Shown here piece after piece: positions 39,231 to 63,114 of a stretch of DNA of 64,000 bases. Origin of the DNA: an uncultured Actinomycetes bacterium (GTDB lineage: Bacteria > Actinomycetota > Thermoleophilia > Gaiellales > Gaiellaceae); assembly GCA_963762085.1 (NCBI GenBank), contig CAVXJD010000003.1, forward strand, positions 64,506-128,505. Reading direction: 5' to 3'. The first letter of the stretch is position 1. The number at the start of each line of letters is the position of its first letter. The notes under the pieces are model-generated. The model saw nothing but the letters and a program-made list of their open reading frames with translations, did no database searches and was not told where the DNA came from. Made by a program: the position numbers and the translations under genes.

Positions 39231-41213
39231 TCAGTGCCACGGAAAGCTGATCCGTGAGAGCATCACCCCGTACGGCGGGTCGGTCTCGTAGATGCCCGGA
39301 ATCTCGACGATCAACGGATGCCAGCGCTCGCCCGTGAGACGAACCCGAATCGTGCCGCTCTTTGCGACCGAGAACCGCCGCTCACGTCGCCCATCGAGCC
39401 AGAGCGTCGCCGTCGTCGGACGGGCAGCGGCGAAGTCGAGCGTCAGGAGGCCCGGGCCCCACACCCAGAATGGTGCCTGGGGCTCGCTGGTTCGCCGATC
39501 GATCCAGCCACGGCAGAAATAGGGCTTCTCTCGTGCCGGCTCGCCGAAGGGGTTCGACAGGTTCGCGCGGCCGTTCGGTTCGAGCAGCGTGACGGCGCCA
39601 TCCCGGACCTCCGGCAAATAGCCGGCCGCGAGCGCCCCCCGCCACGCGAACCATCCGCCTGCGACGCCGCTCCGAAAGAGTCCGCGGTGAAACAGGAGCT
39701 GCTCAACACCCAGCGCATCGAGCCGGTCGCGGTCCCCGTCGAGCCAGACGCCGCAGGACAGTCGCCCGAAGCGGTAGTAGAAGTCGAAGGCCGGCTCCGG
39801 CGCCAGGGTCGAGTAGCCGGTCGGTCTCTCGCGCCTTGCTTGGAGTGTGTAGAGGTCGTACACCGATCCTTCCTGCCGGCCCGGCTCGAACGGCGGCACC
39901 TCGAGGATCCGGCCGGGGGAGGAGCGGCGGGCGGCGGCGTAGGCGTCGTTCGAGCCGTCGGCCGGGGTCGGGGCGAAGGGCATCACCGTGAGATCGGCGG
40001 CCACGAGCAGAAAGGCAGCCGCACCGGCCAAAGCTTGTCGCCTCGAGACGCGCTCGAGGAGCGCCGCGAGCGCGAAGGCCGCGAGCGCCGCCAACGCCAG
40101 GTCCGCGATCGGCATGAACCGCCCGGGGACGCGGACGCTCTGGAGCGGCGGCACGATCGATCGAAGCGGAGCGTAGAGCGGCAGGTTCGTTCCGAAGGCG
40201 ATCAGGATGGGAACGACCGCCGCGAGCCCGAGCAGGATCCCGAGGCCACGACGGGCTTGCAGGAGCACCACCAGCCCTACGACAGCGAGCGCGAGGGTCA
40301 GCCAGCCGAGATAGACGAGCTCCTCGCTCGGGGCGGTGTGGAAACGGTTCAGGAAGTCGAGCGCCTCCGCCGAGTAGGCATCCACATTCGAGAGGGATCG
40401 CCGCTCCGCAAGCCTCGAGCCTTCGACCACGGTGTAGCGGAGGGCGAGCCCGACCGCAGCGGTGGCGACGACGCCCCCGGCCACCCAGACGGCGGGCAGC
40501 GGGCGGTAACGCACGCCGGCGTAGGCCGCGACGAACGGGAGCGTCCCAAGGGCGAGATGGAGCTGACCGGAGAGCGGGAACGACACGAGCGCGACGGCCG
40601 CGAGGACTCCCCACGCATGCGCATGCCTCCGTGTCCGTGCCGCGCGCGCCCGCTCGACTGCCAGGAGGCTGAGCGGAAGGACGATCGCGACCCAGCCGAG
40701 CAGATGGTCGGCACTCTGGGCAAGCCGGTAAGGGGCGATTGCGAACGCGAGCCCGCCCACGAGTGCGGGCACGAACGTGAGATCGAGTGCGCGGAGCCAG
40801 GCGTAGGCAAGGAGGCCGCCCGCGACCACTGTGGCCAGGAGCAACAGATTCCATGCGATCACGGGCCCGAAAAGAGCCTCGAGCGGCCAGAAGGGGAGGC
40901 CGAAGGGCCAGCCGCCGAGCGCGACCTGAGGCTCGACCAGCGGCTGAAAGCTGTACGGATCCCGCCAGGGTGCGTCCCAGGCCGCGAGCTGGTAGCCGAG
41001 GAGCCAGAAGCGGTAGACGACCTGGCCGTGATCTCCGGCCGCCGTCTCTCCGTATCCTTCGGCGCCGCCCGCGAGGTAGGCCGACCCGAACGAGGTGAGG
41101 CCGGGCCAGGCGGAGACCAGCGCAGCTGCGGTGTAGAGGAGTGCTACGAGGCCGAGCGGGCCGAAGCCAGGAGCTCGTCGAAATCGGGGAGCTCGTCGAC
41201 CTCGTAGCGCCAT
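39231..41213 (-). CDS. large polytopic membrane protein, GT-C-like glycosyltransferase suspected
   Basis: 660 aa. About 12 TM helices are followed by a soluble C-terminal domain of about 200 aa. The architecture resembles YfhO or dolichyl-phosphate-mannose-type transferases. No motif is confirmed. Confidence 0.55.
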   Translation of the reverse strand: MALRGRRAPRFRRAPGFGPLGLVALLYTAAALVSAWPGLTSFGSAYLAGGAEGYGETAAGDHGQVVYRFWLLGYQLAAWDAPWRDPYSFQPLVEPQVALGGWPFGLPFWPLEALFGPVIAWNLLLLATVVAGGLLAYAWLRALDLTFVPALVGGLAFAIAPYRLAQSADHLLGWVAIVLPLSLLAVERARAARTRRHAHAWGVLAAVALVSFPLSGQLHLALGTLPFVAAYAGVRYRPLPAVWVAGGVVATAAVGLALRYTVVEGSRLAERRSLSNVDAYSAEALDFLNRFHTAPSEELVYLGWLTLALAVVGLVVLLQARRGLGILLGLAAVVPILIAFGTNLPLYAPLRSIVPPLQSVRVPGRFMPIADLALAALAAFALAALLERVSRRQALAGAAAFLLVAADLTVMPFAPTPADGSNDAYAAARRSSPGRILEVPPFEPGRQEGSVYDLYTLQARRERPTGYSTLAPEPAFDFYYRFGRLSCGVWLDGDRDRLDALGVEQLLFHRGLFRSGVAGGWFAWRGALAAGYLPEVRDGAVTLLEPNGRANLSNPFGEPAREKPYFCRGWIDRRTSEPQAPFWVWGPGLLTLDFAAARPTTATLWLDGRRERRFSVAKSGTIRVRLTGERWHPLIVEIPGIYETDPPYGVMLSRISFPWH

Positions 41214-41608
41214 GCAGCGAGGATCATGCCGTCTCCGTCGAGCAGGAAGGCGGATCGCTCGGACACCCGCTCGAGGCCGCGGTAGTTGAAAGCGTTGTCG
41301 AACGCGTCGACAGCGTGGCCGTTCCAGTCGGAGAGCAGGGGGACGTTGATGTCGAGCGCCTCGCGCCAGGCGCGGTGCGACCAGGGACTGTCCCGCGAGA
41401 TCCCGAAGACCGACGTGCCCGCCGCTTCGAATTCGGCTCTCCTGTCACGCAGGAGGACGAGCTCGTCAGTTCAGGTGCTCGACCAGTCGAAGAGATAGAA
41501 GAGGAGCAGGACTCGCTCTCCCTCGGCCGGAAGGTCTCGAAGCCGGACACGCTCGTTCGTCGCGAGCCAAACCTCCACGTCGCGTGGGCGCTCCCCTGCG
41601 GAAATCAC
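41144..41608 (-). CDS. AhpE-like 1-Cys-type peroxiredoxin with selenocysteine (in-frame UGA at 41471-41473)
   Basis: My translation from GTG 41608 reads VISAGERPRDVEVWLATNERVRLRDLPAEGERVLLLFYLFDWSST-U-TDELVLLRDRRAEFEAAGTSVFGISRDSPWSHRAWREALDINVPLLSDWNGHAVDAFDNAF...ELLASARSAS. Read-through of the TGA keeps an AhpC/TSA-like sequence to a TAG at 41144. U occupies the Pxxx(T/S)xxC peroxidatic position. Confidence 0.75.
41439..41455 (-). promoter_or_regulatory. candidate SECIS stem-loop for the peroxiredoxin UGA
   Basis: On the mRNA, CUCCUG-CGUGA-CAGGAG starts 15 nt after the UGA. GCU/AGC pairing is possible around a 4-nt bulge. Confidence 0.4.
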
Positions 41609-42807
41609 GCCGTTACCGGCGGGCCGACTTGCTCCGTCACGTCGGCGATCTCGCTGACGACCTCGGCCAGGTCGCGATTCGCGTTCCAGACGCGGAGCTG
41701 GCGGTCGGCTCCGTTCCCGCGCTCCAGGATCTGGCGTATCCCTTCCAGCTCGCGCTCGGAGCCGAGCTCGCGTGCGTGCGGCTCGATGTCGCGGAGGGTG
41801 CGCCGCACGAGCTGCGCGACGGGGACGCGGTTCCTGCGACCGGTTGCGAGGTCCATGACGGGCGCTTCGAGGCCGTAGCGCGCGGCGAGCCACTTGTTCT
41901 CGGTCACCAGGATTCGATGGTAGGAAGGAAGCTCGTGGCCGGCGTCGTAGCGCTCGGAGTAGAGCTTGACAATGCCCTGGATGTAGGCGGCCAGGGCGAC
42001 CGCCTCCTCGACGCGCGTGACCGCGTCCATGATCCGCACCTCCACGGTGCCGAAGCGCGGGTGGAGCCTCACGTCCCACCAAATGTGGGTGTAGTCGGCG
42101 ATGCAGCCCGTCTTTTCGAGTTGACCCACCACTTCGGCGAAGTCCGCATAATCCCGGAAGCGGGGCGGGGGGCCCGAACGCGGGAACGCGGCGAAGATCA
42201 TCTGGCGGCTCGAGGAGAGGCCCGTCGGCTCTCCGCGCCAGAAGGGCGAGTTGCCCGAGAGCGCGAGGAGATCCGTCAAGTGGACGAGGAGGGCGCTCTG
42301 GATTTTGATCGCCTTCTCCGGGTCGTCGATCCCGACATGAACGTGCATCCCGAAGATGAGCTCTCGCCGTGCCACGTACTGGAGCTGGTCCACGAGGTTT
42401 CGGTAGCGGTCGCGGGCCGTGATCCGTTGGCGTTCGAAGAGGCTAAAGGGATGGGTGCCGGCCGAGCCGACTCGAAGGCCTCGCGTCCGACCGATCTCCG
42501 TCACGTGTGCCCGCAGCTTGCGGAGCTCCGTGTCGACCTCAGGGACGGTCTTGCAGACGGGCGTTGCGATCTCGAGGACGGACTGCATGAGCTCAGGCGC
42601 GATGCGCTTTTCGAACTCGCTGCCCGCTGTGGCGCTCAGGATCGTGTCGACGTGCTGAACGAGATCGAACGTTTCGGTGTCGAGCAGCATGTACTCCTCC
42701 TCGACACCGAGGGTGTACGGGTCGCTCTTGCCGAAGTTGTGGTCGAGCACGCTGCCACCCTCGGCGAAGCTCTTACCGGTGATCGTGGCGGGATAGATCT
42801 GCTTCAC
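41605..42807 (-). CDS. carboxylate-amine ligase, glutamate-cysteine ligase family 2 (YbdK-type)
   Basis: 400 aa. Contains TLGVEEEYMLLD and HVHVGIDD motifs. Its stop overlaps the peroxiredoxin GTG (GTGA). Confidence 0.85.
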   Translation of the reverse strand: MKQIYPATITGKSFAEGGSVLDHNFGKSDPYTLGVEEEYMLLDTETFDLVQHVDTILSATAGSEFEKRIAPELMQSVLEIATPVCKTVPEVDTELRKLRAHVTEIGRTRGLRVGSAGTHPFSLFERQRITARDRYRNLVDQLQYVARRELIFGMHVHVGIDDPEKAIKIQSALLVHLTDLLALSGNSPFWRGEPTGLSSSRQMIFAAFPRSGPPPRFRDYADFAEVVGQLEKTGCIADYTHIWWDVRLHPRFGTVEVRIMDAVTRVEEAVALAAYIQGIVKLYSERYDAGHELPSYHRILVTENKWLAARYGLEAPVMDLATGRRNRVPVAQLVRRTLRDIEPHARELGSERELEGIRQILERGNGADRQLRVWNANRDLAEVVSEIADVTEQVGPPVTA

Positions 42808-42847
42808 GGCCTTGACTGTATCCCGCTCGTGCGGCCGAATCGACCGC

Positions 42848-43240
42848 TCAGGTCTCGTGCGACAGAACGGCGTCGGCTTCGATCTCCACGAGCCAGCGTG
42901 GATCCACGAGCTCTTTGACGGTCAGCGTCGTGTTCGCTGGGCGGATGTCGGAGAACGCCTCGCCGTGCGCGCGCCCGACTTCCTCGAAGTCTTCCGTCCG
43001 TACGAGATAGACGCGCGTTCGCACGACGTCCGCCAGCGAGCCGCCCGCCTCCTGCAGAGCCCGCTCGACGATTTCGAGACAACGCTTTGCCTGCGAGTAG
43101 GCGTCAGGAGGAGGATCGCTGCCGTCCGCCATGATCGGGGCGCAGCCGGCGATCCAGACCTGGGTTCCGACCTGGACCGCACGCGAATAGCCGACCACGG
43201 GCTCGTAGGGCGATCCGGAGGAGATCAGACGCCTGTGCAA
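42848..43240 (-). CDS. RidA/YjgF family protein
   Basis: 130 aa. Contains PVVGYSRAVQVGTQVWIAG and RPANTTLTVKELVDPRWLVEIEADA. Confidence 0.85.
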   Translation of the reverse strand: MHRRLISSGSPYEPVVGYSRAVQVGTQVWIAGCAPIMADGSDPPPDAYSQAKRCLEIVERALQEAGGSLADVVRTRVYLVRTEDFEEVGRAHGEAFSDIRPANTTLTVKELVDPRWLVEIEADAVLSHET

Positions 43241-45865: not shown

Positions 45866-46021
45866 TGTTCTCCTTTGGATTTTGGGGCCGGCCGCGAGCC
45901 ACCCTCCGGCTTCAGCCTATTCCCGCTTTGCGCACGGGTGCTGCGCAGCTTGTGTCTAAAGCGTTAAACGACGAGGCGGATCAGGAAAATCCCGCTGCGG
46001 ACCGGCCACTAGACTGGCCTC

Positions 46022-49000
46022 ATGGCGCCCGAGTCCGTCTTCACGCCGCTCCCAGCTGTCCCTGACCACCCCGCCCTGGAGCGGGAGCTCCTCGCCTGGT
46101 GGGAGGACGCGGACATCTTCGAGAAGCTCAGAGCCCAAAATGCCGAGGGCCCTGCCTGGAGCTTCATCGATGGCCCCGTCACGGCCAACAATCCGATGGG
46201 CGTGCACCATGCGTGGGGCCGGACGCTCAAGGACGTCTTCCAGCGCTACAAGGCGTTGAACGGCTTCGATCAGCGCTACCAGAACGGCTTCGACTGTCAG
46301 GGGCTCTGGGTCGAGGTCGAAGTCGAGAAGGCTCTCGGCCTGAACTCGAAGCGTGAGATCGAGGAATACGGCCTCGCCGAGTTCGCCCGTCGCTGTCGCG
46401 AGCGCGTCGCCGAGTTCTCGGACGTGCAGACCAGTCAATCGATCAGGCTCGGCCAATGGATGGACTGGGAGAACGACTACTACACCTTCTCAGACACGAA
46501 CATCAGCTACATCTGGGGTTTCCTGAAGAGCATCCACGAGCGCGGCTGGCTCTATCAGGGCCACCGCTCGATGGTGTGGTGCCCGCGCTGCGGCACGTCC
46601 CTCTCCCAGCACGAGCTGATCGACTCGTACCGCGACATCACCCACCCGTCGCTCTACGTCCGGTTCCCGATCAAGGATCGAGAGGACGAGGCGCTCGTCG
46701 TCTGGACAACCACTCCGTGGACGCTTCCCGCGAACGTGGCGGCAGCGGTGCATCCCGACGCGCGCTACGCCCGGGTCGAGACTTCGGCCGGGATCGAGAT
46801 CGTCGCCGAGGCGCTCGTTGACGCGGTCCCGCTGGCCGGCGAGGTCCGGGACACGGTCGTGGGGTCGGAGCTCGTCGGGCTCGAGTACGAGGGCCCGTTC
46901 GACGAGCTCGAACCCCAGCAGGAAGTCGTCCACCGGGTGATCCCGTGGGAGGAGGTCTCCCTGGAGGAGGGAACGGGAATCGTCCACATCGCGCCGGGTG
47001 CCGGGACTGAGGACTTCGAGCTCGCGCGGATTCACGACCTGCCCGTGCTTGCCCCGATCGACGAGTCAGGCCGGTTCTACCCGGAATACGGCTGGCTGCA
47101 CGGTCGCTCCACGGACGAGACCGTGGGCCAGATCATCGGTGACCTGGGCGAGCGCGGTCGGCTCCTCGAAGCCGGCGAGATCACCCACCGCTATCCCGTT
47201 TGCTGGCGCTGCTCCACACCGCTCGTCTTTCGAATCGTCGACGAGTGGTTCATCTCCGCGGACGAGATTCGGCCCAAGATGCTCGCTGCGAATGCCACCG
47301 TTCGCTGGACGCCCGAGTTCTACTCGAGGCGGATGGACGACTGGCTTCGCAACATGGGCGATTGGTGCATCTCGCGGAAGCGCTACTTCGGGCTGCCGCT
47401 CCCCTTCTACCGTTGCGACGACTGCAACGTGATGAATGTGATCGGCTCCGAAGAGGAGCTGCGGGATCGCGCTGTGAGCGGACTCGACCAGCTCGAGGAG
47501 CTGCACCGGCCCTGGGTGGACGAGGTGACGATTGCCTGCGAGGGGTGCGGCTCCGAGCTTCGGCGTCTCCCGGAAGTCGGTGACGCGTGGCTCGACGCCG
47601 GCATCGTGCCGTTCTCGACGCTCGGCTGGCAGAACTCGGAGTACATCGAGGGTGGATACGCGACGGGCGCCGCCCGCGGGCTCACGGGGGCTGACCTTCC
47701 AGACCACGCGTACTGGGAGACGTGGTTCCCGGCCGACTGGGTCTCTGAGTCCCGCGAGCAGATTCGGCTCTGGTTCTACTCCCAGCTCTTCATGTCGGTC
47801 GCGCTCGTGGGCGAGGCGCCGTACCGGCAGGTTCTTGCGTACGAGCGGGTCACCGATGAGACCGGTCGTGCCATGCACAAGTCCTGGGGGAACGCGATCG
47901 AGCTGAACGAGGCACTCGACCGGATGGGCGCTGATGTGATGCGTTGGCTGTACTGCTCCCAGGTCCCCAGCCAGAACCTCAATTTCGGTTTCGGTCTCGC
48001 CCGGGAGGTGAAGCGCGAGCTTCTCACCTTCTGGAACTCGGTCAGCTTCCTGATTCTCTACGCGAACGTCGAGGGGTGGAGTCCGGACGCGAAGCTCCTC
48101 GAATCGGGGCCGCCGAGGGACGATTTGGCCCAGCTCGATCGGTGGCTTCTCGCCCGCGTCCAGCAGCTGGTCGCCGAAGCCAATGACGGCTTCGAGCGTT
48201 TCTGGACGCCGGCCGTCACGAAGGCGTTCACGTCCTTCATGCGGGATCTCTCCGACTGGTACGTCCGGCGTAGCCGCCCGCGCTTCTGGCACGGAGAGGA
48301 GGCTGCGCTCGAAACCCTGTGGTACGCAATCGTGCAGTCGCTCCGCACGATCGCGCCGCTGATGCCGTTTCTGTCGGACCACCTTTGGCGGAACCTCGTT
48401 GCAGGCCCCTGCGACAACGCCCCCGAGAGCATCTTTCTGGCCGGCTGGCCCGAGGTGGCATCAGATCTCGAAAACGACGCGCTGCTGGTCGAGGTGGAGG
48501 AGGTTCGCCGCGTCGTCGGTCTCGGCCATTCCGCGCGCCAGCAAGCGGGTCGAAAGGTGCGCCAGCCGCTTCGCCGAATGGTCGTCGAGGGCGCGAACGC
48601 GTCCACGCCCCATTCGGACGAGATCAAGGCCGAGCTACGCGTGAAGGAGCTCGAGTTCGGACCGGTCGAAGGCACCTATCTGCGCGTGAAGCCGAACCTC
48701 CCGGTCCTGGGGCCCCGGCTCGGGAAGGAGCTCGCGACGATCCGTGCCGAGCTCCAGGAAGGCCGATTCGAGGACCTCGGAGGAGGGCGCTTCCGCGTTG
48801 CGGGTCACGAGCTCGCGCCGGACGAGGTCTTCGTCGAAAGGTTGGCGCCCGACGGCTGGGCGTTTGCATCGGATGACGGTCTCGCGGTTGCCCTCGATAC
48901 GCGCCTCGACCCGGAGCTCGAGCTCGAGGGACGCGTACTCGACCTCATACACGCGATCCAGCTAATGCGAAAAGAAGCGGGGCTCGAGGTGACAGACAGG

Positions 49001-49120
49001 ATCGTCTTGACCCTCCCCGGGAACGGGGACGACGTGCTCCAGCACGCGGACTGGATCAAGCAGGAGACCCTCGCCACCCGGATCGAGCAGGGCGAGGAGC
49101 TCGGTATCTCCAAGGCGTAG
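46022..49120 (+). CDS. ileS: isoleucine-tRNA ligase
   Basis: 1032 aa class I synthetase with an editing domain. HIGH-like NPMGVHHAWGR and a KMSKS-like HKSWGN are present. Confidence 0.95.
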   Translation: MAPESVFTPLPAVPDHPALERELLAWWEDADIFEKLRAQNAEGPAWSFIDGPVTANNPMGVHHAWGRTLKDVFQRYKALNGFDQRYQNGFDCQGLWVEVEVEKALGLNSKREIEEYGLAEFARRCRERVAEFSDVQTSQSIRLGQWMDWENDYYTFSDTNISYIWGFLKSIHERGWLYQGHRSMVWCPRCGTSLSQHELIDSYRDITHPSLYVRFPIKDREDEALVVWTTTPWTLPANVAAAVHPDARYARVETSAGIEIVAEALVDAVPLAGEVRDTVVGSELVGLEYEGPFDELEPQQEVVHRVIPWEEVSLEEGTGIVHIAPGAGTEDFELARIHDLPVLAPIDESGRFYPEYGWLHGRSTDETVGQIIGDLGERGRLLEAGEITHRYPVCWRCSTPLVFRIVDEWFISADEIRPKMLAANATVRWTPEFYSRRMDDWLRNMGDWCISRKRYFGLPLPFYRCDDCNVMNVIGSEEELRDRAVSGLDQLEELHRPWVDEVTIACEGCGSELRRLPEVGDAWLDAGIVPFSTLGWQNSEYIEGGYATGAARGLTGADLPDHAYWETWFPADWVSESREQIRLWFYSQLFMSVALVGEAPYRQVLAYERVTDETGRAMHKSWGNAIELNEALDRMGADVMRWLYCSQVPSQNLNFGFGLAREVKRELLTFWNSVSFLILYANVEGWSPDAKLLESGPPRDDLAQLDRWLLARVQQLVAEANDGFERFWTPAVTKAFTSFMRDLSDWYVRRSRPRFWHGEEAALETLWYAIVQSLRTIAPLMPFLSDHLWRNLVAGPCDNAPESIFLAGWPEVASDLENDALLVEVEEVRRVVGLGHSARQQAGRKVRQPLRRMVVEGANASTPHSDEIKAELRVKELEFGPVEGTYLRVKPNLPVLGPRLGKELATIRAELQEGRFEDLGGGRFRVAGHELAPDEVFVERLAPDGWAFASDDGLAVALDTRLDPELELEGRVLDLIHAIQLMRKEAGLEVTDRIVLTLPGNGDDVLQHADWIKQETLATRIEQGEELGISKA

Positions 49121-49127
49121 GCCTCGG

Positions 49128-50069
49128 CTAGGCCGCCGTTCTCGGACCGAGCTCGGCCGGGAGCTTGAAGACCACGCTCTCGTCCTCGCCGGTCGCCGTC
49201 TCGATCTCGACGTCGCCGCGCTCTCGAAACCAGGCGACGACGCGGCGGACGAGTGCTTCCGGCGCCGAGGCGCCGCAGGTGATTCCGACCGTCTCGGCGC
49301 CGAGGAGCCAGCTTTCGTCGATCGCGAACTCGTCCTCGATCAGATGCGCCTCGACCGCCGCGCCGAGTGCGACCTCGACCAGGCGCTTCGAGTTCGAGCT
49401 GTCTTCCGACCCGATCACGAGCAGGAGGTCGACCCGCTCGAGGATACGCTTGACTGCGCGCTGGCGGTTCGTTGTCGCGTAGCAGATGTCCTCACGCTTC
49501 GGAGCTTCGATGCCAGGGAAGCGTGCGCGGAGGACGCCAATGATCGCCTCCGTCTCGTCGACGGACAGCGTCGTCTGGGTGATGTAGGCGAGCGGTCGGC
49601 CTCGCGGGGGCTGGAAGCGACGAGCCTGGTCGACGTTCTCGACGAGGACGATTGCGTCGGGTGCTTCCCCGAACGTGCCCTCGACTTCGTCGTGGCCGGC
49701 GTGGCCGATCAGGACGATGGTGTAGCCACGGGAGGCGAAGCGTCGTGCCTCCACGTGCACCTTCGCGACGAGAGGGCACGTAGCGTCGATCGTTCTGAGG
49801 CCGAGCCTCCGGGCATTTGCGCGGACTGCGGGCGAGACACCGTGGGCCGAGAAGATGACCTCGGCTCCGGTCGGGACGTCCTCCTCGGTGTCGACGAAGA
49901 TCGCGCCGCGCTCCTCGAGCTCGCGAACGACGTGCGTATTGTGGACGATCCGCCTGCGAACGTAGACCGGGGCTCCACGCAGGCGAAGCGCCTGCTCGAC
50001 CGTCTCGATTGCTCGTTCGACCCCGGCGCAGTATCCGCGCGGGGTCGCAAGAAGGATCCGCTTGACCAC
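49128..50069 (-). CDS. ispH: 4-hydroxy-3-methylbut-2-enyl diphosphate reductase
   Basis: 313 aa with a GTG start. Contains RGYCAGVERAI, IVHNTHVV and DATCPLV. Confidence 0.95.
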   Translation of the reverse strand: MVKRILLATPRGYCAGVERAIETVEQALRLRGAPVYVRRRIVHNTHVVRELEERGAIFVDTEEDVPTGAEVIFSAHGVSPAVRANARRLGLRTIDATCPLVAKVHVEARRFASRGYTIVLIGHAGHDEVEGTFGEAPDAIVLVENVDQARRFQPPRGRPLAYITQTTLSVDETEAIIGVLRARFPGIEAPKREDICYATTNRQRAVKRILERVDLLLVIGSEDSSNSKRLVEVALGAAVEAHLIEDEFAIDESWLLGAETVGITCGASAPEALVRRVVAWFRERGDVEIETATGEDESVVFKLPAELGPRTAA

Positions 50070-50300
50070 CGGCGGCCACTGTAATCAGGGGCCTGTTCAG
50101 CTCGGGTTAAGGAAGGCCCGCCACTCGGGGGGGTAGTGCAGCGGGCCTTCCAGAATGCGCACCGCGGCGTTCATAGCCAGGACACCAACCACGGTCGCAT
50201 CGCCCAGTAACGGCACCGTATCCAGCGGGCTTCCAGCTGCCAATAGGCCTATCGGCCCATCTTCGCAAGGCATGCGACCCGGCTTGTCAGTAAGGAAATC

Positions 50301-53300
50301 GTGGACGGAGGCTCTTCGACCGCCCTATCATCAGGGTGCCCAGTGACGAACGAGACGACGACGTTGCTCATCAATACGGTGCCGCTTCTCGTTGCCGCGG
50401 CGCTGTATCTCGCGCTGTCCGCGCTCCTGTTCCGCTCCTTGCTCGGAGCTGGACGGCGGCCGACAGCGCCTGGCTTTGCGCTGTGGCTGCTCTTTACGGT
50501 CGTCGGTGTGACCTCGGCCGTGCTCGGGGCCGCGAAGCTTGGCGACTCCGAGCCGCTCGCGTCCTCCAGCCCCTGGCCCGCGTTTGTCCTAACGCTGCTC
50601 GGCCTGGTGCCTGCCGCTCTCCTCCTGGCGCGGCACGACCGCAGGCTGCTCGTCGATCCCGCGGAGCGAGTGCGGGTGGCTGAAGAGGCCGCAAGCGAGC
50701 GGGAGCGCGAGGCGGGGGCGATGTCGCGGCTCTCGAGCGCACTTTCGCGCTCGCTGAGCGCGAAAGACGCAGCCGAGAACCTGTTCGACGAGCTGGAGCA
50801 CTCGCTCGGGATCGAAGCGTCGATGCTCGCCGTCGTTGACGACACGGAGCGCCGCGCGACGGGGTTTGCGGCCCGGGGCGCCGACGAGGACTGGTGGAGG
50901 GGGATCGAGATCGACCTCGTCGAGGATCCGGGCGGGATCGCAACCGTGGCGCGCGAGCGGGCAGCGTTTGCCGTCTACGACGTCGAGGCTGCACCGCACG
51001 TGAGCCGTGCCCTCGACACGGTGCCGGCGAAGAGCGCCGCCTTCATGCCACTGGTCTCCGAGGGCAGGCTCACGGGCGTGCTCGTTGTGGCCGTCTTCTC
51101 GGAGCGGCGTTTCTTCACGGCGGGCGAGCTCGAGCTCTTCCAGCGGCTTGCCAACGAGACGGCGCTGGCCCTCGGCAGCAGCAGATCCTCCGAGGCGCTG
51201 GGCGCCGCGCTCGAACGCGAACGCCTGGTCGCCTCGATTTCGCGCCAGGTCCGTTCCGAGCTCGACCTGGACGACGTGCTGGCAGTCGCCGTGAGAGAGA
51301 CCGCGCGGGCGCTCAAAGTCTCCCGCTGCTTCATTCGCCTTGCCGAGCCGAGCGGCGCGATGCCTATCCATTCGGAATGGACGGCGCCCGGTCACGATCC
51401 GGTCGGCGGTGTTGCGGCGCGCTTGCCGGCGTCGAACCTGGCGGCCCGAGAGCGGCGCACGGTCGCGATCGCGGACGTCGAGTCGGCCGCCGAGTTGGAC
51501 GACCCGAGTCTCGGCAGCCGCAAGGCGCTGGTCGGGCTCGGAACGAAGGCCGTGCTCGCCACGCCAATCCAGGTCTTCGACGACGTGATCGGCGTCTTCG
51601 CACTCCACCGCCCGGAGGTCGGCCGCTGGACCGAGGGCGAGGTCGCGCTTGCCGAATCCGTTGCCGGAGAGGCGGGGCTCGCGATCCACACGGCCCGCCT
51701 GCTCCGCGAGGAAGGACGGCGGGTCGACCGCCAATCGGCCCTGCTGAAGGCGGCACAGGTGGTGACGAGCGATCTTCGGTTTACCTCGGTGGTGCAGAGG
51801 CTGGTCGAGGAGGTCGCCGAGTTGCTCGGCGCCGATGCAGCCGATTGCTGGATTCTCGAGCCTCACCGCGACTCGCTCCGTTGTCGCGCCGTCTTCGGGC
51901 TGCCGCAGGAGGCCGTCGACCGGAGAATTCCCGCGGCGGGCACACAAAAGGCGGCGATCGAGCTTGGAAAGCCCGTGCTGACCCGCAACTTCCGCGAGAC
52001 CGAGGACCCTGCGCCCAGCACGTATTACTCGGAGTTCGAGGACGTGATGGTCGCTCCGATCACATGGCTCGGCGAGGTGCGGGGCGTACTCGGGGTCTGC
52101 TCAGCGGAAGCCGGAAGGTTTGGAGAGCCGGATCTCGAGCTCCTCGATGCCTATGCCCGTTTCGCCTCGCTCGCCTTCCACAATGCGGAGAGCTTCGAGG
52201 AGCGTGAGCGGCAGGCACAGATCCAGCAGGGCTTCTATCGGATCGCCGAGGCGCTGGGGTCGCCGCTCTCGCTCGACGAGACCGTTACGGCGCTGGCCCA
52301 GGCGGCTACCGAAGCACTGGGCGGCATCGCGGCGTTCGTCTTGCGACCGGCCGGCGGCAAACTCGTTCTCGCCGGCTCCTATGATGTCCACGACGAGGTC
52401 GAGGCGGCTCTTCGCCATGGCATCCAGGACCACGAAGCGCCGCTCGCTGCGGCCACCCGAGAAGGGCGGCTCATTACCTCGAGCACTCTCACCGATGACG
52501 AGCGCTTCGACAGCCGGTGGAGGGACCTTCTAGCGGCCAACAGCGCGTCCGCGCTGCTTGCAGCGTCGGTTGAGGGCACGAGCGGTGACCCGGGCTCTGT
52601 CGTCGTTCTCTTCGGGGAGGAACGGGCCTTCACGGACGACGACCTTGCCCTGGCGGGCCACCTCAGCCGCGCGGCGCGAGGTGCGCTGGAGCGCAGCGAG
52701 TTGTTCGAGACCGAACGGCGTGGGCGCAGGCTCTCGCAGCGACTCGCAGCCATCGGCGCCCGCGTCGTTACCGTGCTGGATCCCTCGATCGTCCTCGAAG
52801 AGGTCGTCCGCGAGGCGCCCATCCTCCTCGATGCTGACGCAGCGACTGTGAGGCTCCTCGACGGCGAAGAGCTCGTCATCCGCGCGGCCTCGGGCGTGAA
52901 GGGTGATAGCGCGCACGATCTGGTCGGAACTCGCGCACTCGTGGGGACCGGCCTCCTCGGGGATGCAGTCCAGTCGCGCACCGCCTCGATGGTCGACGAC
53001 GTCGGCGCGCGGCCCGATCTCGGAGATGGAGACCCCCTCCTCGATCGTGAGATGGCGGCGTGTATCGCGGTTCCAATGATCGCCCACGGAGGCGGCCTGC
53101 ACGGGGTACTTTCGGTCTATACGGCACGGCCGAGAGCATGGCGCGAGGAGGAGGGGCAGGCGCTTTCCGCGCTGGCCGCCGTGGCATCCGCCGGTCTGTC
53201 GAACGCGGAGCTCTACCAGCGCGTCGCAGAGGAGAAGGAGCGCTCGAACGCGATCCTCCTCAACATCGCGGACGGAATCGTGGCTGTGGACCGCGAGGAA

Positions 53301-54293
53301 CGAGTCGTCCTCTGGAACGCCATGGCCGAACGGATTACCGGCGTCCCGGCGGCAGAAGCGCTCGGTAGGCGGATTCCCGAGGTCCTCCGGCGCGATCTCG
53401 CCGGGGCGGCGCGTGGGCCCGGGAGAGAAGAGCCGATCACGATCAGCAGAGGCGGCAAGGACGTGTTCCTGTCGCTGACGGAGGCCGTGATGCTCGACTC
53501 GGCCGGCGCCGTCGGGGGCCGCATCTTCGCCTTCCGAGATGTCTCGGGTGAGCGCGTGGTCGACCAGATGAAATCGGACTTCGTCGCAACCGTGTCGCAC
53601 GAGCTCCGGACCCCGCTCACCTCGATCTACGGGTTCGCCGAGACACTCCTCCGGAGCGACGTCGCGTTCGGGGACGAGGAGCGGGCGACTTTCCTCGGCT
53701 ACATCGCCTCGGAGTCGGAGCGCCTGATCGGGATCGTCGACGACCTGCTGAGCGTCGCGCGCCTCGAGGCCGGCACGCTCGGCCTGGCGCTGTCGCCGGT
53801 CGACGTGGCCGAGGTGCTTGGGTCGGTAGGCGGGCGCGCTCAGGAGCACATCGACGGCTCCCATCGGCTGGAGATCGACGCTCCCGAAGGCGGGCTCTAC
53901 GCGGAGGCGGACGGGGAGAAGCTGGCTCAGATCCTCCTGCATCTGGTCGACAACGCCGTCAAGTACTCGCCCGAAGGAGGAACGATCACGCTTGCCGGAC
54001 GCAGGAAATCCGATGCCATCGAAGTCAGGGTCAGCGACGAGGGCATCGGGATCCCTCTCGACGACCAGAGCAGGATCTTCACGAAGTTCTATCGGGCAGG
54101 GACAGCTCCGCTGACGGGCGCCCACGGCACCGGGCTCGGTCTCTTTCTCGTGCGCGGCCTCCTGGCGGCAATGCACGGGCGCATTGCCGTCGAGTCGGTC
54201 GAGGGGGAGGGGTCGACGTTCGTCTTCGAGCTCCCTGTCTCGAAGAGGGCCCCCCGGGGTAGAGAAGCCCAGGTGGAACCGGCACGCTCATGA
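50301..54293 (+). CDS. membrane-anchored multi-GAF/PAS sensor histidine kinase
   Basis: 1330 aa. N-terminal TM helices are followed by several GAF-like repeats, a PAS-like segment, the H-box SHELRTPLTSI, and an HATPase domain (DNAVKYSP, DEGIGIP, GTGLGL). GTG 50343 is an alternative start. Confidence 0.9.
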   Translation: MDGGSSTALSSGCPVTNETTTLLINTVPLLVAAALYLALSALLFRSLLGAGRRPTAPGFALWLLFTVVGVTSAVLGAAKLGDSEPLASSSPWPAFVLTLLGLVPAALLLARHDRRLLVDPAERVRVAEEAASEREREAGAMSRLSSALSRSLSAKDAAENLFDELEHSLGIEASMLAVVDDTERRATGFAARGADEDWWRGIEIDLVEDPGGIATVARERAAFAVYDVEAAPHVSRALDTVPAKSAAFMPLVSEGRLTGVLVVAVFSERRFFTAGELELFQRLANETALALGSSRSSEALGAALERERLVASISRQVRSELDLDDVLAVAVRETARALKVSRCFIRLAEPSGAMPIHSEWTAPGHDPVGGVAARLPASNLAARERRTVAIADVESAAELDDPSLGSRKALVGLGTKAVLATPIQVFDDVIGVFALHRPEVGRWTEGEVALAESVAGEAGLAIHTARLLREEGRRVDRQSALLKAAQVVTSDLRFTSVVQRLVEEVAELLGADAADCWILEPHRDSLRCRAVFGLPQEAVDRRIPAAGTQKAAIELGKPVLTRNFRETEDPAPSTYYSEFEDVMVAPITWLGEVRGVLGVCSAEAGRFGEPDLELLDAYARFASLAFHNAESFEERERQAQIQQGFYRIAEALGSPLSLDETVTALAQAATEALGGIAAFVLRPAGGKLVLAGSYDVHDEVEAALRHGIQDHEAPLAAATREGRLITSSTLTDDERFDSRWRDLLAANSASALLAASVEGTSGDPGSVVVLFGEERAFTDDDLALAGHLSRAARGALERSELFETERRGRRLSQRLAAIGARVVTVLDPSIVLEEVVREAPILLDADAATVRLLDGEELVIRAASGVKGDSAHDLVGTRALVGTGLLGDAVQSRTASMVDDVGARPDLGDGDPLLDREMAACIAVPMIAHGGGLHGVLSVYTARPRAWREEEGQALSALAAVASAGLSNAELYQRVAEEKERSNAILLNIADGIVAVDREERVVLWNAMAERITGVPAAEALGRRIPEVLRRDLAGAARGPGREEPITISRGGKDVFLSLTEAVMLDSAGAVGGRIFAFRDVSGERVVDQMKSDFVATVSHELRTPLTSIYGFAETLLRSDVAFGDEERATFLGYIASESERLIGIVDDLLSVARLEAGTLGLALSPVDVAEVLGSVGGRAQEHIDGSHRLEIDAPEGGLYAEADGEKLAQILLHLVDNAVKYSPEGGTITLAGRRKSDAIEVRVSDEGIGIPLDDQSRIFTKFYRAGTAPLTGAHGTGLGLFLVRGLLAAMHGRIAVESVEGEGSTFVFELPVSKRAPRGREAQVEPARS

Positions 54294-56066: not shown

Positions 56067-57242
56067 TCAGACGTCCCCGTCCGGCACGATCCCCCGGCTG
56101 AAGCTTTCCACCTGTTCAGGGGTAAACGGCGGGCGGGAAAGCTGCTCGCTCAGGTGGAAGGCACAGAACATGTGGACGATGTAGTGCATCCGCTGCTGGA
56201 GATCCGACCAGTCGTGCGCGCCGCAGTCGTCGAGAGCCGGCGCAACCGGTTCAAACCGTGCCAGCAGCTCGACCAGATCCGTGTCGGCGGGCTCGTCGAG
56301 CGCCTCCGGGTACGCGTCGGCCAGGTGCGTCCCGAGGGCCAGCACCCGCTCCGGCAGCGACATGACCATGAACGACTCCGTGATCACTTCGCGTGCGAGC
56401 CTGCTCGCGCTTCGCTGCACGCCTCCCGCCACGACACCCACAACGACGGCGGCCGGTCGCCGGACAACAGGCCACCAGCGGCCTGCTGACGGGAAGAGAG
56501 CCTCGAGGGCGCGGCGCCCCAGATCCTTCTGTGTGGCGTAGGCGGCGTCGAGGGCCTCGCGAATCTGCGGCTGCAGGCGCGTCTGCTCGTGGAAGCCGAT
56601 TTCGAGGTTCGCGAGGACGGCGAGCTCGGTGCGCGCCTTCGGGTCGTGCTCGCGCTGCCGCCGCTCATAGCGGACGAACGCCCGGCGCAAGTAGCGCTGC
56701 CCCTCGGGTGGGTCACCGGGCTGCAGTCGGGCGAGGAAGCGCTGGAAGGAAGGAGACTCGGCCACGTCAGGCGGGCACTCATGGAGATAGCGCGCGAACT
56801 GGAGTCCGATCTCCTCGAACACCTTCAGGTTCCCGCGTGCGACGGCGTCGCTGGCACACTCGAACGCGTCGAACGGTGTGTGCAGCGCAGCCGTCAGGCG
56901 CCCCATCCGCGACTCGCGCTCAAACAGGCCGTGGCGTAGGAGCCGACGCCACAACGTCGCAATCGGATGCAGCAGCCAGCGGTCCTGGCCGAGCTTGCGG
57001 CTGAAGTGCTCGACTAGATCCTCACCGCGGATCGTCCGCCCCGCCTGGCGCGAGGCCCACGTGGCGTACGTGCACCAGTTCGCGCCCTCGCCGCTTCGTT
57101 CCGTGAACGCCGCCGCGAGACGCGAGTAGCAGTAGGTGATCTCGAGGTTTCGGATGATCGGGTTCGCGATCGCGACGATCCGCCGGACATCGTCCGCACT
57201 CGGTATCTGCGTCGATCGGTTCGAATCGGGTCTCACGGCCAT
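56067..57242 (-). CDS. hypothetical all-alpha protein, unknown family
   Basis: 391 aa with high GC3. Has conserved-looking blocks (NLEITYCYSRLAAAF, GANWCTYATWASRQAGRTIRGEDL). I cannot assign a family. Confidence 0.6.
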   Translation of the reverse strand: MAVRPDSNRSTQIPSADDVRRIVAIANPIIRNLEITYCYSRLAAAFTERSGEGANWCTYATWASRQAGRTIRGEDLVEHFSRKLGQDRWLLHPIATLWRRLLRHGLFERESRMGRLTAALHTPFDAFECASDAVARGNLKVFEEIGLQFARYLHECPPDVAESPSFQRFLARLQPGDPPEGQRYLRRAFVRYERRQREHDPKARTELAVLANLEIGFHEQTRLQPQIREALDAAYATQKDLGRRALEALFPSAGRWWPVVRRPAAVVVGVVAGGVQRSASRLAREVITESFMVMSLPERVLALGTHLADAYPEALDEPADTDLVELLARFEPVAPALDDCGAHDWSDLQQRMHYIVHMFCAFHLSEQLSRPPFTPEQVESFSRGIVPDGDV

Positions 57243-57324
57243 AGCGTCTCACGGAGCGCAGACCTGTCGCCTGGCCGGTGCGATACCCACGAGAAGTCGC
57301 TCGTCGGCGAGTAGTCTCCCGCCG

Positions 57325-58083
57325 GTGAGCGAGCCCCATGCCGATGTCGTCGAGGAGGGCCGCCGGCTCGTCACCCTCGCGCTGCAGGAAAACCTGCCGC
57401 TTCGTCTTCTGGGGGGTGTCGCGATCAGGCTCCGCGGCCCCGAGACAGGACATTCGGCGCTCGAGCGCTCCTACGCGGATCTCGACTTCGCAGCCGGAAA
57501 GGGCTCGTCCAGGAAAGCGGCGTCCTTCTTCGAGGTGGCGGGCTACGTTCCGGATGTCGCCTTCAACACCCTCCAGGGAAGCGAGCGCTTGCTCTTCTGG
57601 GACGGCGCCAACCGGCGGCAGGTGGACGTGTTCGTCGGCGCGTTCTCGATGTCCCACAAGATTCCGCTCGCGGACCGCCTCGAGCTCGAGCCGGTCTCGG
57701 TTCCGCTCGCTGAGCTCCTCCTGACGAAGCTCCAGATCGCCGAGCTGAACGAGAAGGACGTGCGAGACACGCTGGCGCTCCTCCTCGAGCACCCGGTCGG
57801 AGACGAGGACGGCGACACCGTCAACGCCGCCCGTGTCGCGGCGCTTTGCGCCGCGGACTGGGGGCTCTGGCGCACCATCACCGGGAATCTGGAGGCAACG
57901 CTCGCCCGCCTGGATGCCTATGCCCTGTCGGCGGACGAGCAGCGCCTCGTGGCTGACCGGGCACGGGCGCTTCTCGACCGCATCGAGGCGGAGCCAAAGT
58001 CTCGCGCCTGGCGCCTTCGCGCGCGCATCGGGGAGCGAAAGCGGTGGTACGAGCTACCGGAAGAGGTTGCCGGCGGGCCCTAG
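57325..58083 (+). CDS. nucleotidyltransferase-fold protein (MNT/AbiEii-like minimal NTase)
   Basis: The in-frame GTG at 57325 gives 252 aa. LRLLGGVAIRL...SYADLDFAA fits the G-[GS]-x(9-13)-D-x-D NTase signature. The C-terminal half is helical. Confidence 0.5.
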   Translation: MSEPHADVVEEGRRLVTLALQENLPLRLLGGVAIRLRGPETGHSALERSYADLDFAAGKGSSRKAASFFEVAGYVPDVAFNTLQGSERLLFWDGANRRQVDVFVGAFSMSHKIPLADRLELEPVSVPLAELLLTKLQIAELNEKDVRDTLALLLEHPVGDEDGDTVNAARVAALCAADWGLWRTITGNLEATLARLDAYALSADEQRLVADRARALLDRIEAEPKSRAWRLRARIGERKRWYELPEEVAGGP

Positions 58084-58097
58084 GGGCGAGTCGAGCG

Positions 58098-58141
58098 GTT
58101 GCAAGCACCGCTGCCGCGTTGCAATACTTGCGTCGGTGCAA
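58098..58141 (+). promoter_or_regulatory. three GTTGCAA/GGTGCAA repeats, candidate IclR operator
   Basis: GTTGCAA at 58098 and 58118, and GGTGCAA at 58135, which overlaps the iclR GTG. TTGCAA is itself palindromic. A GCAA-TAC-TTGC inverted repeat lies at 58121-58131. Confidence 0.3.
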
Positions 58142-58813
58142 TCCGCAGACAAGGCACTCGCGATCCTCGCAGCCTTCACCGAAGCGCGGCCCGAGCTCGG
58201 TGCGACCGAACTCGCTGGGGAGCTCGGGATGCACAAGAGCACCGTCTCGCGGCTTCTTGCAACGCTCGAGGCGCGCGGTCTCGTGCGCCGCGCCGGCGAT
58301 CGCTTTCTTCCCGGGCCGGAGCTGGCGCGACTCGGGTCCCTGGCCGCCAGAGGCCTGGCGCTTCTCCCCACCGCGCGCGATCCGCTCGCGCGTCTTGCAG
58401 ACGAGACCTCGGAGACGGTGAACCTCGCGATCCGGGAAGGCGATCGCGTCCTGAACGTGTACCAGGTCGAGACCTCCCACTTCGTCGGAGTGAAGGACTG
58501 GACCGGTCGAACGACACCGCTCGGCACGACCGCGAACGGCAAGGTGCTGCTCGCCTTCGGTGATGGCGGCGCTTCCACGGAGCTCGAAAGCATTCGTGGC
58601 TGCGGCTATGCGACGGCGGTGGAGGAGCTCGAGCCGGGCCTGAACTCCGCGGCCGCGCCGGTCTTCGATTGCACTGGCACTTGTGTGGCGGCGGTCTCGG
58701 TTGCAGGCCCGTCGTATCGCGTGACCGAAGAGCGGCTCGCAGATCTCGGCCGTGCATGCGTGGTGGCCGCGGACGAGATTTCTGCGGGCCTCGGGCACCG
58801 GAGAGCTGCTTGA
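58136..58813 (+). CDS. IclR-family transcriptional regulator
   Basis: The GTG at 58136 gives 225 aa. The HTH is VQSADKALAILAAF...LGATELAGELGMHKSTVSRLLATLE. The C-terminus is an IclR effector domain. Confidence 0.85.
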   Translation: MQSADKALAILAAFTEARPELGATELAGELGMHKSTVSRLLATLEARGLVRRAGDRFLPGPELARLGSLAARGLALLPTARDPLARLADETSETVNLAIREGDRVLNVYQVETSHFVGVKDWTGRTTPLGTTANGKVLLAFGDGGASTELESIRGCGYATAVEELEPGLNSAAAPVFDCTGTCVAAVSVAGPSYRVTEERLADLGRACVVAADEISAGLGHRRAA

Positions 58814-60030
58814 TGGCTTGGGAGGTGCGCACGTTCGGTCCGGGCGTGCTCGCGCCCGACGCCGCACGGATCGAGGGCTTGGCGCGCGCCGAGGCTGCAC
58901 TCGCCGGTGTCGACGTCGCGGTCGTCGAGCCGGGCGAGCCGGTGCGGGTCACGCACGTTCTTGATGCCGTCGAGCCACGGATCCGCCCTGACGGTCGCAA
59001 GGCATTTCCGACCGAGGATCGAGCGGGCGAGGGCGTGACGAATCGGATTAGCGACGTTGTTGTCCTTTCCTGCCTCGATTTCCCGGGAGAGGAACGTCCG
59101 CTGCACGAGCAGGAGTCGGTCGTCGATCTCGCAGGCCCGGCCGCCGAACTGACCCCTTTCGGCTCGATGCGTAACGTCGTCCTGACCTTCCGTCCCGGCG
59201 ACGATGCAGATCACCGAGCCATCGACAGCGCAGTTCGGCGTGCGACGCTTTGCGCGGCCGAGCTCCTGGCCGAGCCCACCCTGAGCGCCGAGCCGATCCA
59301 CACGCACACGTTCGCGCTCGAGCCGGCGGACGACGATTCGCTTCCGTCCATCGCGGCGCTCGTGCAACTGTCTGATCTCGGCCAGCTCTACCAGCTCTAC
59401 CTCTACGGAACCCCGGTCGGCGAGAGCGGTCTCCCGAAGCTCGTCGATCCGGCGGAGGTGATGGACGGAGCCGTGACTGCGGGCGAGTACCACTGGGCCG
59501 CGATGCGCAACCCGACCTACTTCTTCCAGCTCAACTCACTGATACGAACTCTCTACCGCGAGCACGGTAAGCGCCTGCGCTTCGCGGGCGTCGTACTCAT
59601 GCGGGGGTACGAGCAGTCGGCGGATGACAAGCAGCGCGCCGCGGACGCGGCTGCGCGTGTCGCGGTCGGACTGGGCGTCGACGGAGTCGTGATCACGACC
59701 GATGCCGGCGGCAACAGCCACACCGACACCATGCTCACGTGCCGAGCCTGCGAGAACGCGGGCGTGAAGACATCGGTGATCGTCTGCGAGGAGACCGATT
59801 TAGAAGCGACCGGGCCGATCCTGACCGATTGGGTCCCTGAGGCCGACTGCATCGTCTCGACGGGGAACGTCGAGCAGCTCGCTCCGGCCTGGAAGCCCGA
59901 GCGAGTGCTGGGCGGCGATCACCTTCTCGACGGCACGCCTGCTGCCGAAGCGGGACCGATCCCGGTTCGCAACTATCTTGGCGCTACTAACCAGATGGGC
60001 CAGCTCGACCTCGGAGCGACGTCATGGTGA
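58813..60030 (+). CDS. glycine/sarcosine/betaine reductase component B alpha/beta proprotein-like (GrdE/GrdG/GrdI family)
   Basis: The in-frame ATG at 58813 overlaps the iclR stop (TGATG) and gives 405 aa. Family assignment rests on overall resemblance and on position immediately upstream of grdB. Substrate type is not assignable. Confidence 0.65.
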   Translation: MAWEVRTFGPGVLAPDAARIEGLARAEAALAGVDVAVVEPGEPVRVTHVLDAVEPRIRPDGRKAFPTEDRAGEGVTNRISDVVVLSCLDFPGEERPLHEQESVVDLAGPAAELTPFGSMRNVVLTFRPGDDADHRAIDSAVRRATLCAAELLAEPTLSAEPIHTHTFALEPADDDSLPSIAALVQLSDLGQLYQLYLYGTPVGESGLPKLVDPAEVMDGAVTAGEYHWAAMRNPTYFFQLNSLIRTLYREHGKRLRFAGVVLMRGYEQSADDKQRAADAAARVAVGLGVDGVVITTDAGGNSHTDTMLTCRACENAGVKTSVIVCEETDLEATGPILTDWVPEADCIVSTGNVEQLAPAWKPERVLGGDHLLDGTPAAEAGPIPVRNYLGATNQMGQLDLGATSW

Positions 60031-61301: not shown

Positions 61302-61452
61302 GGATCAAGGGACTGAGGGTCGTTGTTCTTGACGCGCGTGTATCTCGGGTCCCGACCCGCCCCCCTGCTCACGCGCAAGCGTACTGCCCGAAAGCACTCG
61401 CGTGGCACACCGACTGTGCCACTGGCGTCACGAAAGTTGAGCCGCGAATCAC

Positions 61453-62784: not shown

Positions 62785-62787
62785 TCG

Positions 62788-63114
62788 ATGGTCGAAGCAA
62801 CGCCGGAGACGTTCAAGGATCTGACACGGGAGGGAAGCGTCCTCGTCGACTTCTGGGGGCCGCGTTGTCAGCCGTGTCTGCAGATGATGCCGACCGTGGA
62901 GAAGCTCGAGCAGGAATCGGCGGGCGCCGTCAAGGTGGTGAAGGTGAACGCGACCGAGAATCGAGACGTATGTCGCGAGCTCCGCGTTTTCGGCCTGCCG
63001 ACGTACGTTCTTCTGCGCGACGGCGAGGAACTCGAGCGCCTCTCGGGGGACGTGTCCAAGGAGGACATCGAGAAGGCGTTCGCAACGCTCGGGAACGGAG
63101 GTGAGGCAGCATGA
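62788..63114 (+). CDS. thioredoxin-family protein with CQPC active site
   Basis: 108 aa. Contains [16 protein letters not shown]. An AAAGGAG ribosome-binding site is present. The stop overlaps the grdA ATG (ATGA). Confidence 0.85.

Follow-up and report, generated by a model that had tools for sequence, protein, structure and literature searches.

In this study, we found that a minus-strand gene at 41608..41144 of a 64,000-nucleotide stretch of DNA (hereafter the window) from an uncultured member of the Gaiellaceae (Actinomycetota; contig CAVXJD010000003.1 of assembly GCA_963762085.1) is very probably a genuine gene for a selenocysteine (Sec)-containing, single-domain peroxiredoxin. The frame contains a single internal TGA, at 41473..41471, and is translated, with an asterisk for the TGA, as VISAGE...LLLFYLFDWSST*TDELVLLRDRR...ASARSAS, or, written at greater length, as VISAGERPRDVEVWLATNERVRLRDLPAEGERVLLLFYLFDWSST*TDELVLLRDRRAEFEAAG...DELLASARSAS. 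An initial annotation had proposed that this TGA is read as Sec in a peroxiredoxin free of cysteine. As it stated, the mechanically listed open reading frame (ORF) 41471..42082 ends in ...FDWSST at the TGA, and translation confirmed that read-through in the same frame continues to a TAG at 41144 and gives 154 residues in total. The proposed GTG start at 41608, which overlaps the stop codon of the upstream ligase gene in the sequence GTGA, was verified by the sequence and the ORF list. The aligned first codon was a start codon in all 81 sequences compared (GTG in 48, ATG in 32, TTG in one). The translated protein contained no cysteine at any position, as had been claimed, and among 77 Sec forms of the family 70 were also Cys-free, with one Cys in each of the remaining seven.

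Relatives of the gene were collected by one scan of a species-representative genome collection, which yielded 80 loci, all from Gaiellales, Gaiellaceae or Thermoleophilia metagenome-assembled genomes. The loci were compared with the whole protein by tblastn. The window peroxiredoxin was collinear with all 80 of them across residues 1-150 of its 154 residues, at a protein identity of 55-96%. The codon opposite the window TGA was TGA in 76 of the 80 loci and TGC (Cys) in the other four (L006, L008, L051 and L047, the last on the closed chromosome OY970117). Protein homologues were then taken from a database of 5.8 billion sequences; of the top 120, 116 full-length proteins were aligned. The best full-length proteins were 51-66% identical to the window protein, and those inspected carried Cys in the context ...FDWSATCTNEL.... 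The active-site column of the 116 proteins held Cys in 110 and Trp in six. Thus, the expected alignment of Cys homologues at the UGA was found both in the four TGC genomes and in 110 of the 116 full-length database proteins.

The six Trp-bearing entries (P0015, at L083:170-628, and P0016, P0017, P0043, P0086 and P0109) were JGI-derived and read FDWSSTWT.... One of the six, P0015, was traced to its contig, where the DNA has TGA at this codon and the bacterial code does not yield the stored protein; its W is therefore a mistranslated Sec codon. Another database entry, P0112 (104 residues), is a truncated call that begins downstream of the TGA. A full-length Sec-containing version was absent among the top database matches, despite public genomes with genes 91-96% identical. 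In public databases this peroxiredoxin is thus shortened, given W at the TGA position, or missing. The truncated and W-bearing entries and the missing full-length version agree with the warning of the initial annotation that gene callers would miss or shorten the gene.

The strongest result of the analysis came from the sequence directly after the UGA. A stem-loop, CUCCUG-CGUGA-CAGGAG, had been described 15 nt past the UGA, and both sequence and folding confirmed it. Two weaker outer pairs flank the CUCCUG/CAGGAG stem, and the CGUGA loop begins 21 nt after the UGA. The hairpin was also said to lie in the right place for a bacterial Sec insertion sequence (SECIS), which is borne out by synonymous sites that are frozen in the TGA genes only. 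The core TCCTGCGTGACAGG was unchanged in 77 of 77 TGA sequences and was the sole invariant run of at least 6 nt in the entire gene. The L-L-R-D-R codons after the UGA were CTC, CTG, CGT, GAC and AGG in every TGA sequence having those residues (74-77 of 77), while the other invariant Leu and Arg columns of the gene used three to five synonymous codons. Accordingly, the synonymous divergence (pS) of the hairpin codons was 0.000, compared with 0.43 for the remaining codons. Two of the fixed codons are rare Arg codons in this DNA, with CGT making up 7.9% and AGG 5.8% of the Arg codons in the window genes. The four Cys orthologues encode similar residues (L-R-D/E/G-R) through CGC and CGG, and the stem cannot form in them; their folds were about equally stable, but the structures were unrelated.

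The signature TGA-N16-TCCTGCGTGACAGG was present at 78 TGA loci (76 genomes and two metagenome contigs fetched separately) and at none of the four TGC loci. The 14-nt core occurred once in the window, against 0.01 occurrences expected by chance. When metagenomes were scanned with the signature, at least 120 contigs were recovered, and each match lay in the ...FDW(S/T)xT-U-TxE... context of the same gene. In the 77-sequence alignment the four inner stem pairs were invariant. Pair 20-34 was U-A in 60 sequences and U-G in seven, pair 19-35 was C-G in 67 of 70, and pair 18-36 was G-C in 47 and C-G in eight, that is, with compensatory changes; the two outermost pairs were poorly kept. An Rfam search of the hairpin region returned chance-level matches only, with no match to a bacterial SECIS family. 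The position of the hairpin and the G-U in its loop appear to agree with the Escherichia coli fdhF SECIS and with the bSECISearch consensus, in which the loop contains a G and lies 16-37 nt past the UGA. These results indicate that the hairpin is an RNA element under selection and tied to the TGA.

We also examined selection on the protein on both sides of the UGA. When the 77 TGA sequences were compared in all pairwise combinations, the ratio of nonsynonymous to synonymous differences (pN/pS) came to 0.60 in the 45 codons ahead of the TGA and to 0.46 in codons 58-156 beyond it. The corresponding rate ratios (dN/dS) after the TGA between the window and three close relatives (L001, L002 and L004) were about 0.16, 0.12 and 0.27. 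These values indicate that the segment after the TGA is coding and under purifying selection in the same frame. They bear directly on whether the TGA is a nonsense change from TGC in an ordinary Cys peroxiredoxin, arising in a pseudogene or from a sequencing or assembly error. The two codons are one base apart, and Cys forms of the family are common. However, the same TGA recurs in 76 independent genomes at the species level and in at least 120 contigs from metagenomes, the 108 codons that follow it are still under purifying selection, and the frozen hairpin accompanies the TGA copies specifically. In addition, the divergence of the TGA copies (55-96%) excludes a single contaminating source. 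We therefore give this explanation next to no credence.

Termination at the UGA was also considered, with the downstream part made separately or conserved for another reason and the hairpin serving as a terminator or regulatory element. A downstream-only gene call does exist in at least one relative, the 104-residue entry P0112. However, in the window the first in-frame start after the TGA is GTG 41266, with 40 codons left to the end, so that a separate C-terminal product is implausible. A peroxiredoxin fold divided ahead of its catalytic helix and deprived of its catalytic residue would have no activity. Conservation in this frame also covers the 45 N-terminal codons and the start codon, and no U-run follows the hairpin in the window sequence. 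Termination at this codon is thus highly improbable, and reading of the UGA as Sec remains the explanation that we prefer.

Decoding of UGA as Sec needs a dedicated machinery, and none of its genes was found in the DNA searched. In the 64-kb window, selA, selB, selC and selD were all absent from the results. In the window ARAGORN reported only a tRNA-Pro, and for 60 related loci it reported no tRNA; an Rfam search of the window at the gathering threshold returned the same tRNA-Pro only. With E. coli SelA, SelB and SelD as queries, tblastn gave no match in the window, the 80 related loci or 120 metagenome loci, so that the machinery is inferred rather than seen. A search for in-frame TGAs with coding-type composition on either side, on the other hand, led to a glycine/sarcosine/betaine-reductase (Grd) cluster at 58669-63575 on the plus strand, about 20 kb from the peroxiredoxin, with two selenoprotein genes. 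These two genes, grdA and grdB, both carry an in-frame TGA, and their presence at this distance implies a Sec system in this genome.

These data are relevant to whether the UGA is translated as a residue other than Sec, either as Trp or Gly through reassignment, or as Trp or Cys through near-cognate read-through stimulated by the hairpin. The JGI gene calls, which place W at the codon in six of the top 120 database homologues, would fit such a reading, as would the lack of a directly observed Sec machinery gene in the window or searched loci. However, TGA is the stop codon of 14 of the 32 high-confidence ORFs in the window, and UGA is therefore not reassigned genome-wide. The homologous residue in TGA-free genes is a catalytic Cys and never Trp or Gly, and the W protein that was checked has TGA in its DNA and no W under the bacterial code. 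The same genome carries grdA and grdB with their in-frame TGAs, and the hairpin position and loop G-U are those that we presume for a SelB site, by analogy with the E. coli fdhF SECIS. Translation as another residue is thus improbable, and insertion of Sec accounts better for the gene.

We next asked to which branch of the peroxiredoxins the protein belongs. When C was substituted at the TGA, the match of the Pfam model AhpC-TSA (PF00578) spanned the stop and covered residues 15-129, with E 1.4e-22 and a score of 80.4 bits (cut-off 26). In a phmmer search of PDB sequences, the best match was the Aeropyrum pernix Bcp 2cx3 (E 3.7e-17, 66 bits), followed by 2ywn and Sulfolobus solfataricus 3hjp; these archaeal Bcp/PrxQ structures aligned over the whole length, with E values from 3.7e-17 to 3.4e-15. 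Mycobacterium tuberculosis AhpE was a weaker match (E 6e-10, 42.5 bits, about 28% identity). For the fold, the AlphaFold model of a 65%-identical Cys orthologue (P0001; mean predicted local distance difference test score, pLDDT, 93.8) was used in place of the window protein itself. With this model, Foldseek gave a template modelling (TM) score of 0.92 to Bcp4, the best match, and of 0.88 to AhpE, with a root-mean-square deviation of about 2.1 A. Judged by sequence, the protein is nearer to archaeal Bcp/PrxQ than to AhpE, and judged by the modelled fold it is about equally near to both. The AhpE-type label of the initial annotation thus holds for the size and the 1-Cys architecture but is not borne out as a subfamily assignment by the bit scores and TM scores above. 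None of the NCBIfam models reached its cut-off for the window peroxiredoxin, and the PrxU model NF040737 scored 36.4 bits against a cut-off of 270.

At the active site, located at the start of helix 2, S43-S-T-U46 aligned with S-P-V-C of 2cx3, which places Sec46 at the peroxidatic Cys of the solved Bcp/PrxQ structures. The UGA accordingly falls exactly at the peroxidatic site, as had been proposed, in these structures as in the database homologues. R118 (in SERSAF) aligned with the Arg of AKRAVF in 2cx3, and Ser43, Sec46 and Arg118 were invariant or nearly so in the family. The assignment of a Pxxx(T/S)xxC motif stood in part: (T/S)xxC is present with Sec for Cys, but the motif Pro, which is near-universal in peroxiredoxins, is replaced by Leu39 (FYLFDWSSTU; 41486-41494, minus strand). 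Leu occupied this position in 190 of the 197 family sequences, in Sec and Cys forms alike. AhpE retains the motif Pro.

On the basis of these features, a course of synthesis and catalysis can be proposed. The hairpin would act as a bacterial SECIS, as its SECIS-like features suggest. SelB, with GTP and Sec-tRNA(Sec), would bind the apical part of the hairpin, including the loop G-U, and would deliver Sec to the ribosome in place of release factor 2. The product would take a peroxiredoxin fold with Ser at -3 and the active-site Arg, and, by homology, a hydroperoxide would turn its selenolate into selenenic acid. Since the protein is without any Cys, it has no internal resolving Cys and would need an external reductant; an external thiol may serve for recycling, as it does in AhpE and other 1-Cys enzymes. 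The peroxiredoxin gene is translationally coupled to that of a GCS2 ligase, and a gamma-glutamylcysteine-type low-molecular-weight thiol is therefore a candidate reductant, although a speculative one.

Several points weigh against this overall interpretation. Searches of the window and of about 1.4 Mb from related loci turned up no selA, selB, selD or tRNA-Sec gene. The stability of the hairpin was only modestly above that of shuffled G+C-rich sequence (z = -2.1); as the sequence is 68% G+C, folding energy is weak evidence, and conservation was relied on instead. Covariation was restricted to the outer stem pairs because the hairpin core never varies. The canonical motif Pro is Leu, and the activity could therefore differ from that of textbook peroxiredoxins. 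Finally, the proposed reductant was deduced solely from gene order and is speculative.

The gene order itself was well conserved. RidA, the GCS2 ligase, the peroxiredoxin and a membrane protein form a same-strand block (39231-43240, minus strand) that is conserved across Gaiellales. In about 39 of the 80 loci the stop of the ligase gene overlapped the peroxiredoxin start or preceded it by no more than 38 nt, and in 62 the ligase gene lay within 6 kb. Homologues of the membrane protein began 32-120 nt past the peroxiredoxin stop in 58 of the 80, and a RidA gene was upstream in 47. In the window, the true start of the membrane-protein gene is probably near 41110, just past the peroxiredoxin stop. 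The linkage was also kept around the Cys forms. It is conceivable, although we consider it unlikely, that the GCS2 ligase and the Cys-free Sec-peroxiredoxin make up a self-contained, glutathione-peroxidase-like system in Gaiellales, in which a gamma-glutamylcysteine-type thiol made by the ligase would directly recycle the selenenic acid of the 1-Sec enzyme. If so, this bacterial pairing of a selenoperoxidase with a thiol would have no described precedent, and selenium would be needed for the defence against oxidative stress in one of the most abundant orders of soil actinobacteria.

To compare Sec and Cys forms, a neighbour-joining tree was built from 81 genomic and 116 database sequences. The two forms were interleaved in this tree, which, for so short a protein, is not robust. 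The interleaving suggests repeated Sec/Cys switches, that is, several independent conversions within one bacterial order. It also provides a natural experiment on the choice between Sec and Cys at the peroxidatic site.

Sec-peroxiredoxins with a T/SxxU site are an established family of bacterial selenoproteins (PMC1794560, PMC5029168). This family had 12 members in 2006 (Zhang et al., PMC1794560) and 91 members in 78 organisms in 2016 (Peng et al., PMC5029168). The members in both surveys came mostly from Deltaproteobacteria and Clostridia, which are anaerobes (PMC1794560, PMC5029168), and repeated Cys-to-Sec switching has been reported for the family (PMC1794560). The window protein resembles this family in its T/SxxU site, its Cys-containing homologues and its Sec/Cys switching. 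PrxU of Eubacterium acidaminophilum likewise has Sec for the peroxidatic Cys, an in-frame UGA and a SECIS inside the coding region. However, PrxU belongs to the longer AhpC/Prx1-type lineage (233 positions in NF040737), whereas the window protein, with its 154 residues, is Bcp/AhpE-sized and comes from high-G+C Actinomycetota.

AhpE of M. tuberculosis (Rv2238c) shares with the window protein its size (153 and 154 residues), its actinobacterial origin, a single catalytic chalcogen at position 45/46 and the lack of a resolving Cys, but is a Cys enzyme where the window protein has Sec. The archaeal Bcp/PrxQ proteins (A. pernix 2cx3/4gqf, S. solfataricus Bcp1 and Bcp4, 2ywn and 3hjp) include the best sequence matches among solved structures, and Bcp4 is the best fold match. 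They are Cys-based, many of them with a resolving Cys, whereas the window protein uses Sec and is Cys-free; they also keep the motif Pro (FFPAAFSPVC in 2cx3), where the window family has FYLFDWSSTU. The Sec glutathione peroxidases are functional analogues, with a thioredoxin fold, a single catalytic Sec and recycling by an external thiol. They are a separate family with a different catalytic tetrad, and the likeness is functional, with no sequence relationship claimed.

In the literature, we found no paper on selenoproteins in Gaiella, Gaiellales or Thermoleophilia, or on a Sec enzyme of AhpE/Bcp size, in a search that did not extend to the BSepDB tables. As judged from sequence, the window protein is a member of a new clade within a known kind of selenoprotein, with a family-specific, invariant predicted SECIS, and this clade is widespread in soil Actinomycetota. 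For an entire order of abundant soil Actinomycetota, the public protein sets thus lack a strongly conserved selenoprotein gene. As the gene is missing, truncated or W-bearing in these sets, inventories of redox proteins and of selenium use are incomplete. Such genes can be located and corrected directly with the signature TGA-N16-TCCTGCGTGACAGG. Together with grdA and grdB, the Sec-peroxiredoxin points to Gaiellales as users of Sec, which bears on selenium cycling in soil. The known workings of Sec decoding and of peroxiredoxins are unchanged by the finding.

Table 1. Features of the peroxiredoxin locus and of the Grd cluster in the window.
Feature	Position	Strand	Evidence or remarks
Sec-peroxiredoxin coding sequence (predicted)	41144..41608	-	154 residues; Sec at residue 46; TAG stop 41146..41144
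Start codon GTG	41606..41608	-	shares GTGA with the TGA stop of the upstream ligase, 41605..41607
UGA codon, read as Sec (predicted)	41471..41473	-	peroxidatic position of the (S/T)xxC motif
SECIS stem-loop (putative)	41436..41458	-	folding and invariant core; predicted fold reaches about 41428-41465
SECIS 5' arm CUCCUG	41455-41450	-	
SECIS loop CGUGA	41449-41445	-	
SECIS 3' arm CAGGAG	41444-41439	-	
Invariant core TCCTGCGTGACAGG	41441-41454	-	16 nt downstream of the TGA
Large membrane protein ORF (660 residues)	39231..41213	-	weak Pfam PTPS_related, 26.1 bits against a cut-off of 26.4; no NCBIfam match
GCS2/YbdK-family carboxylate-amine (glutamate-cysteine-type) ligase	41605..42807	-	Pfam GCS2 E 1.8e-59; NF010039 405.5 bits against a cut-off of 371
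RidA/YjgF-family gene	42848..43240	-	TIGR00004 Rid family E 3.3e-16, below the curated cut-off
Component B alpha-type subunit	58669-60030	+	no in-frame TGA; Pfam Gly_reductase 5.9e-78
Selenoprotein B (grdB-like)	60024-61301	+	TGA 61053-61055; Pfam GRDB 7.9e-116; TIGR01918 end to end across the TGA, 410 bits
Component C beta	61453-62784	+	no in-frame TGA; NF040746 551 bits against a cut-off of 450
Thioredoxin, WGPRCQPC	62788-63114	+	no in-frame TGA; Pfam Thioredoxin
Selenoprotein A (grdA)	63111-63575	+	TGA 63237-63239 in ...ETECFV-U-TAAGAMD...; Pfam GRDA 1.8e-65; NF040748 221 bits against a cut-off of 130

The Grd cluster showed some features of its own. An IclR-type regulator lies directly upstream, within the ORF 57833-58813. 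The motif of the GrdB-like protein (61053-61076, plus strand) reads ...LLSGT-U-GTGTRCG..., that is, UxxGxxC, with Gly at the first Cys position of the canonical selenoprotein B motif, UxxCxxC. The substrate-specific NCBIfam models GrdB, GrdF and GrdH were far below their cut-offs for this protein, and only the generic TIGR01918 passed. Component C alpha (grdD) was not seen in the window before the minus-strand CtaG gene at 63591-63998. The literature searched apparently contains no discussion of Grd complexes from Gaiellales.

Outside these loci, two ORFs of coding-type composition, 56067-57242 on the minus strand (391 residues) and 57136-58083 on the plus strand (315 residues), overlap at their ends by about 100 nt; neither had a Pfam match at E <= 0.001. 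A sensor histidine kinase of 1348 residues (50247-54293, plus strand) contains at least four or five GAF domains together with PAS, HisKA and HATPase_c. Its neighbours are ispH/lytB (49128-50084, minus strand) and an isoleucyl-type class I tRNA synthetase (46013-49120, plus strand).

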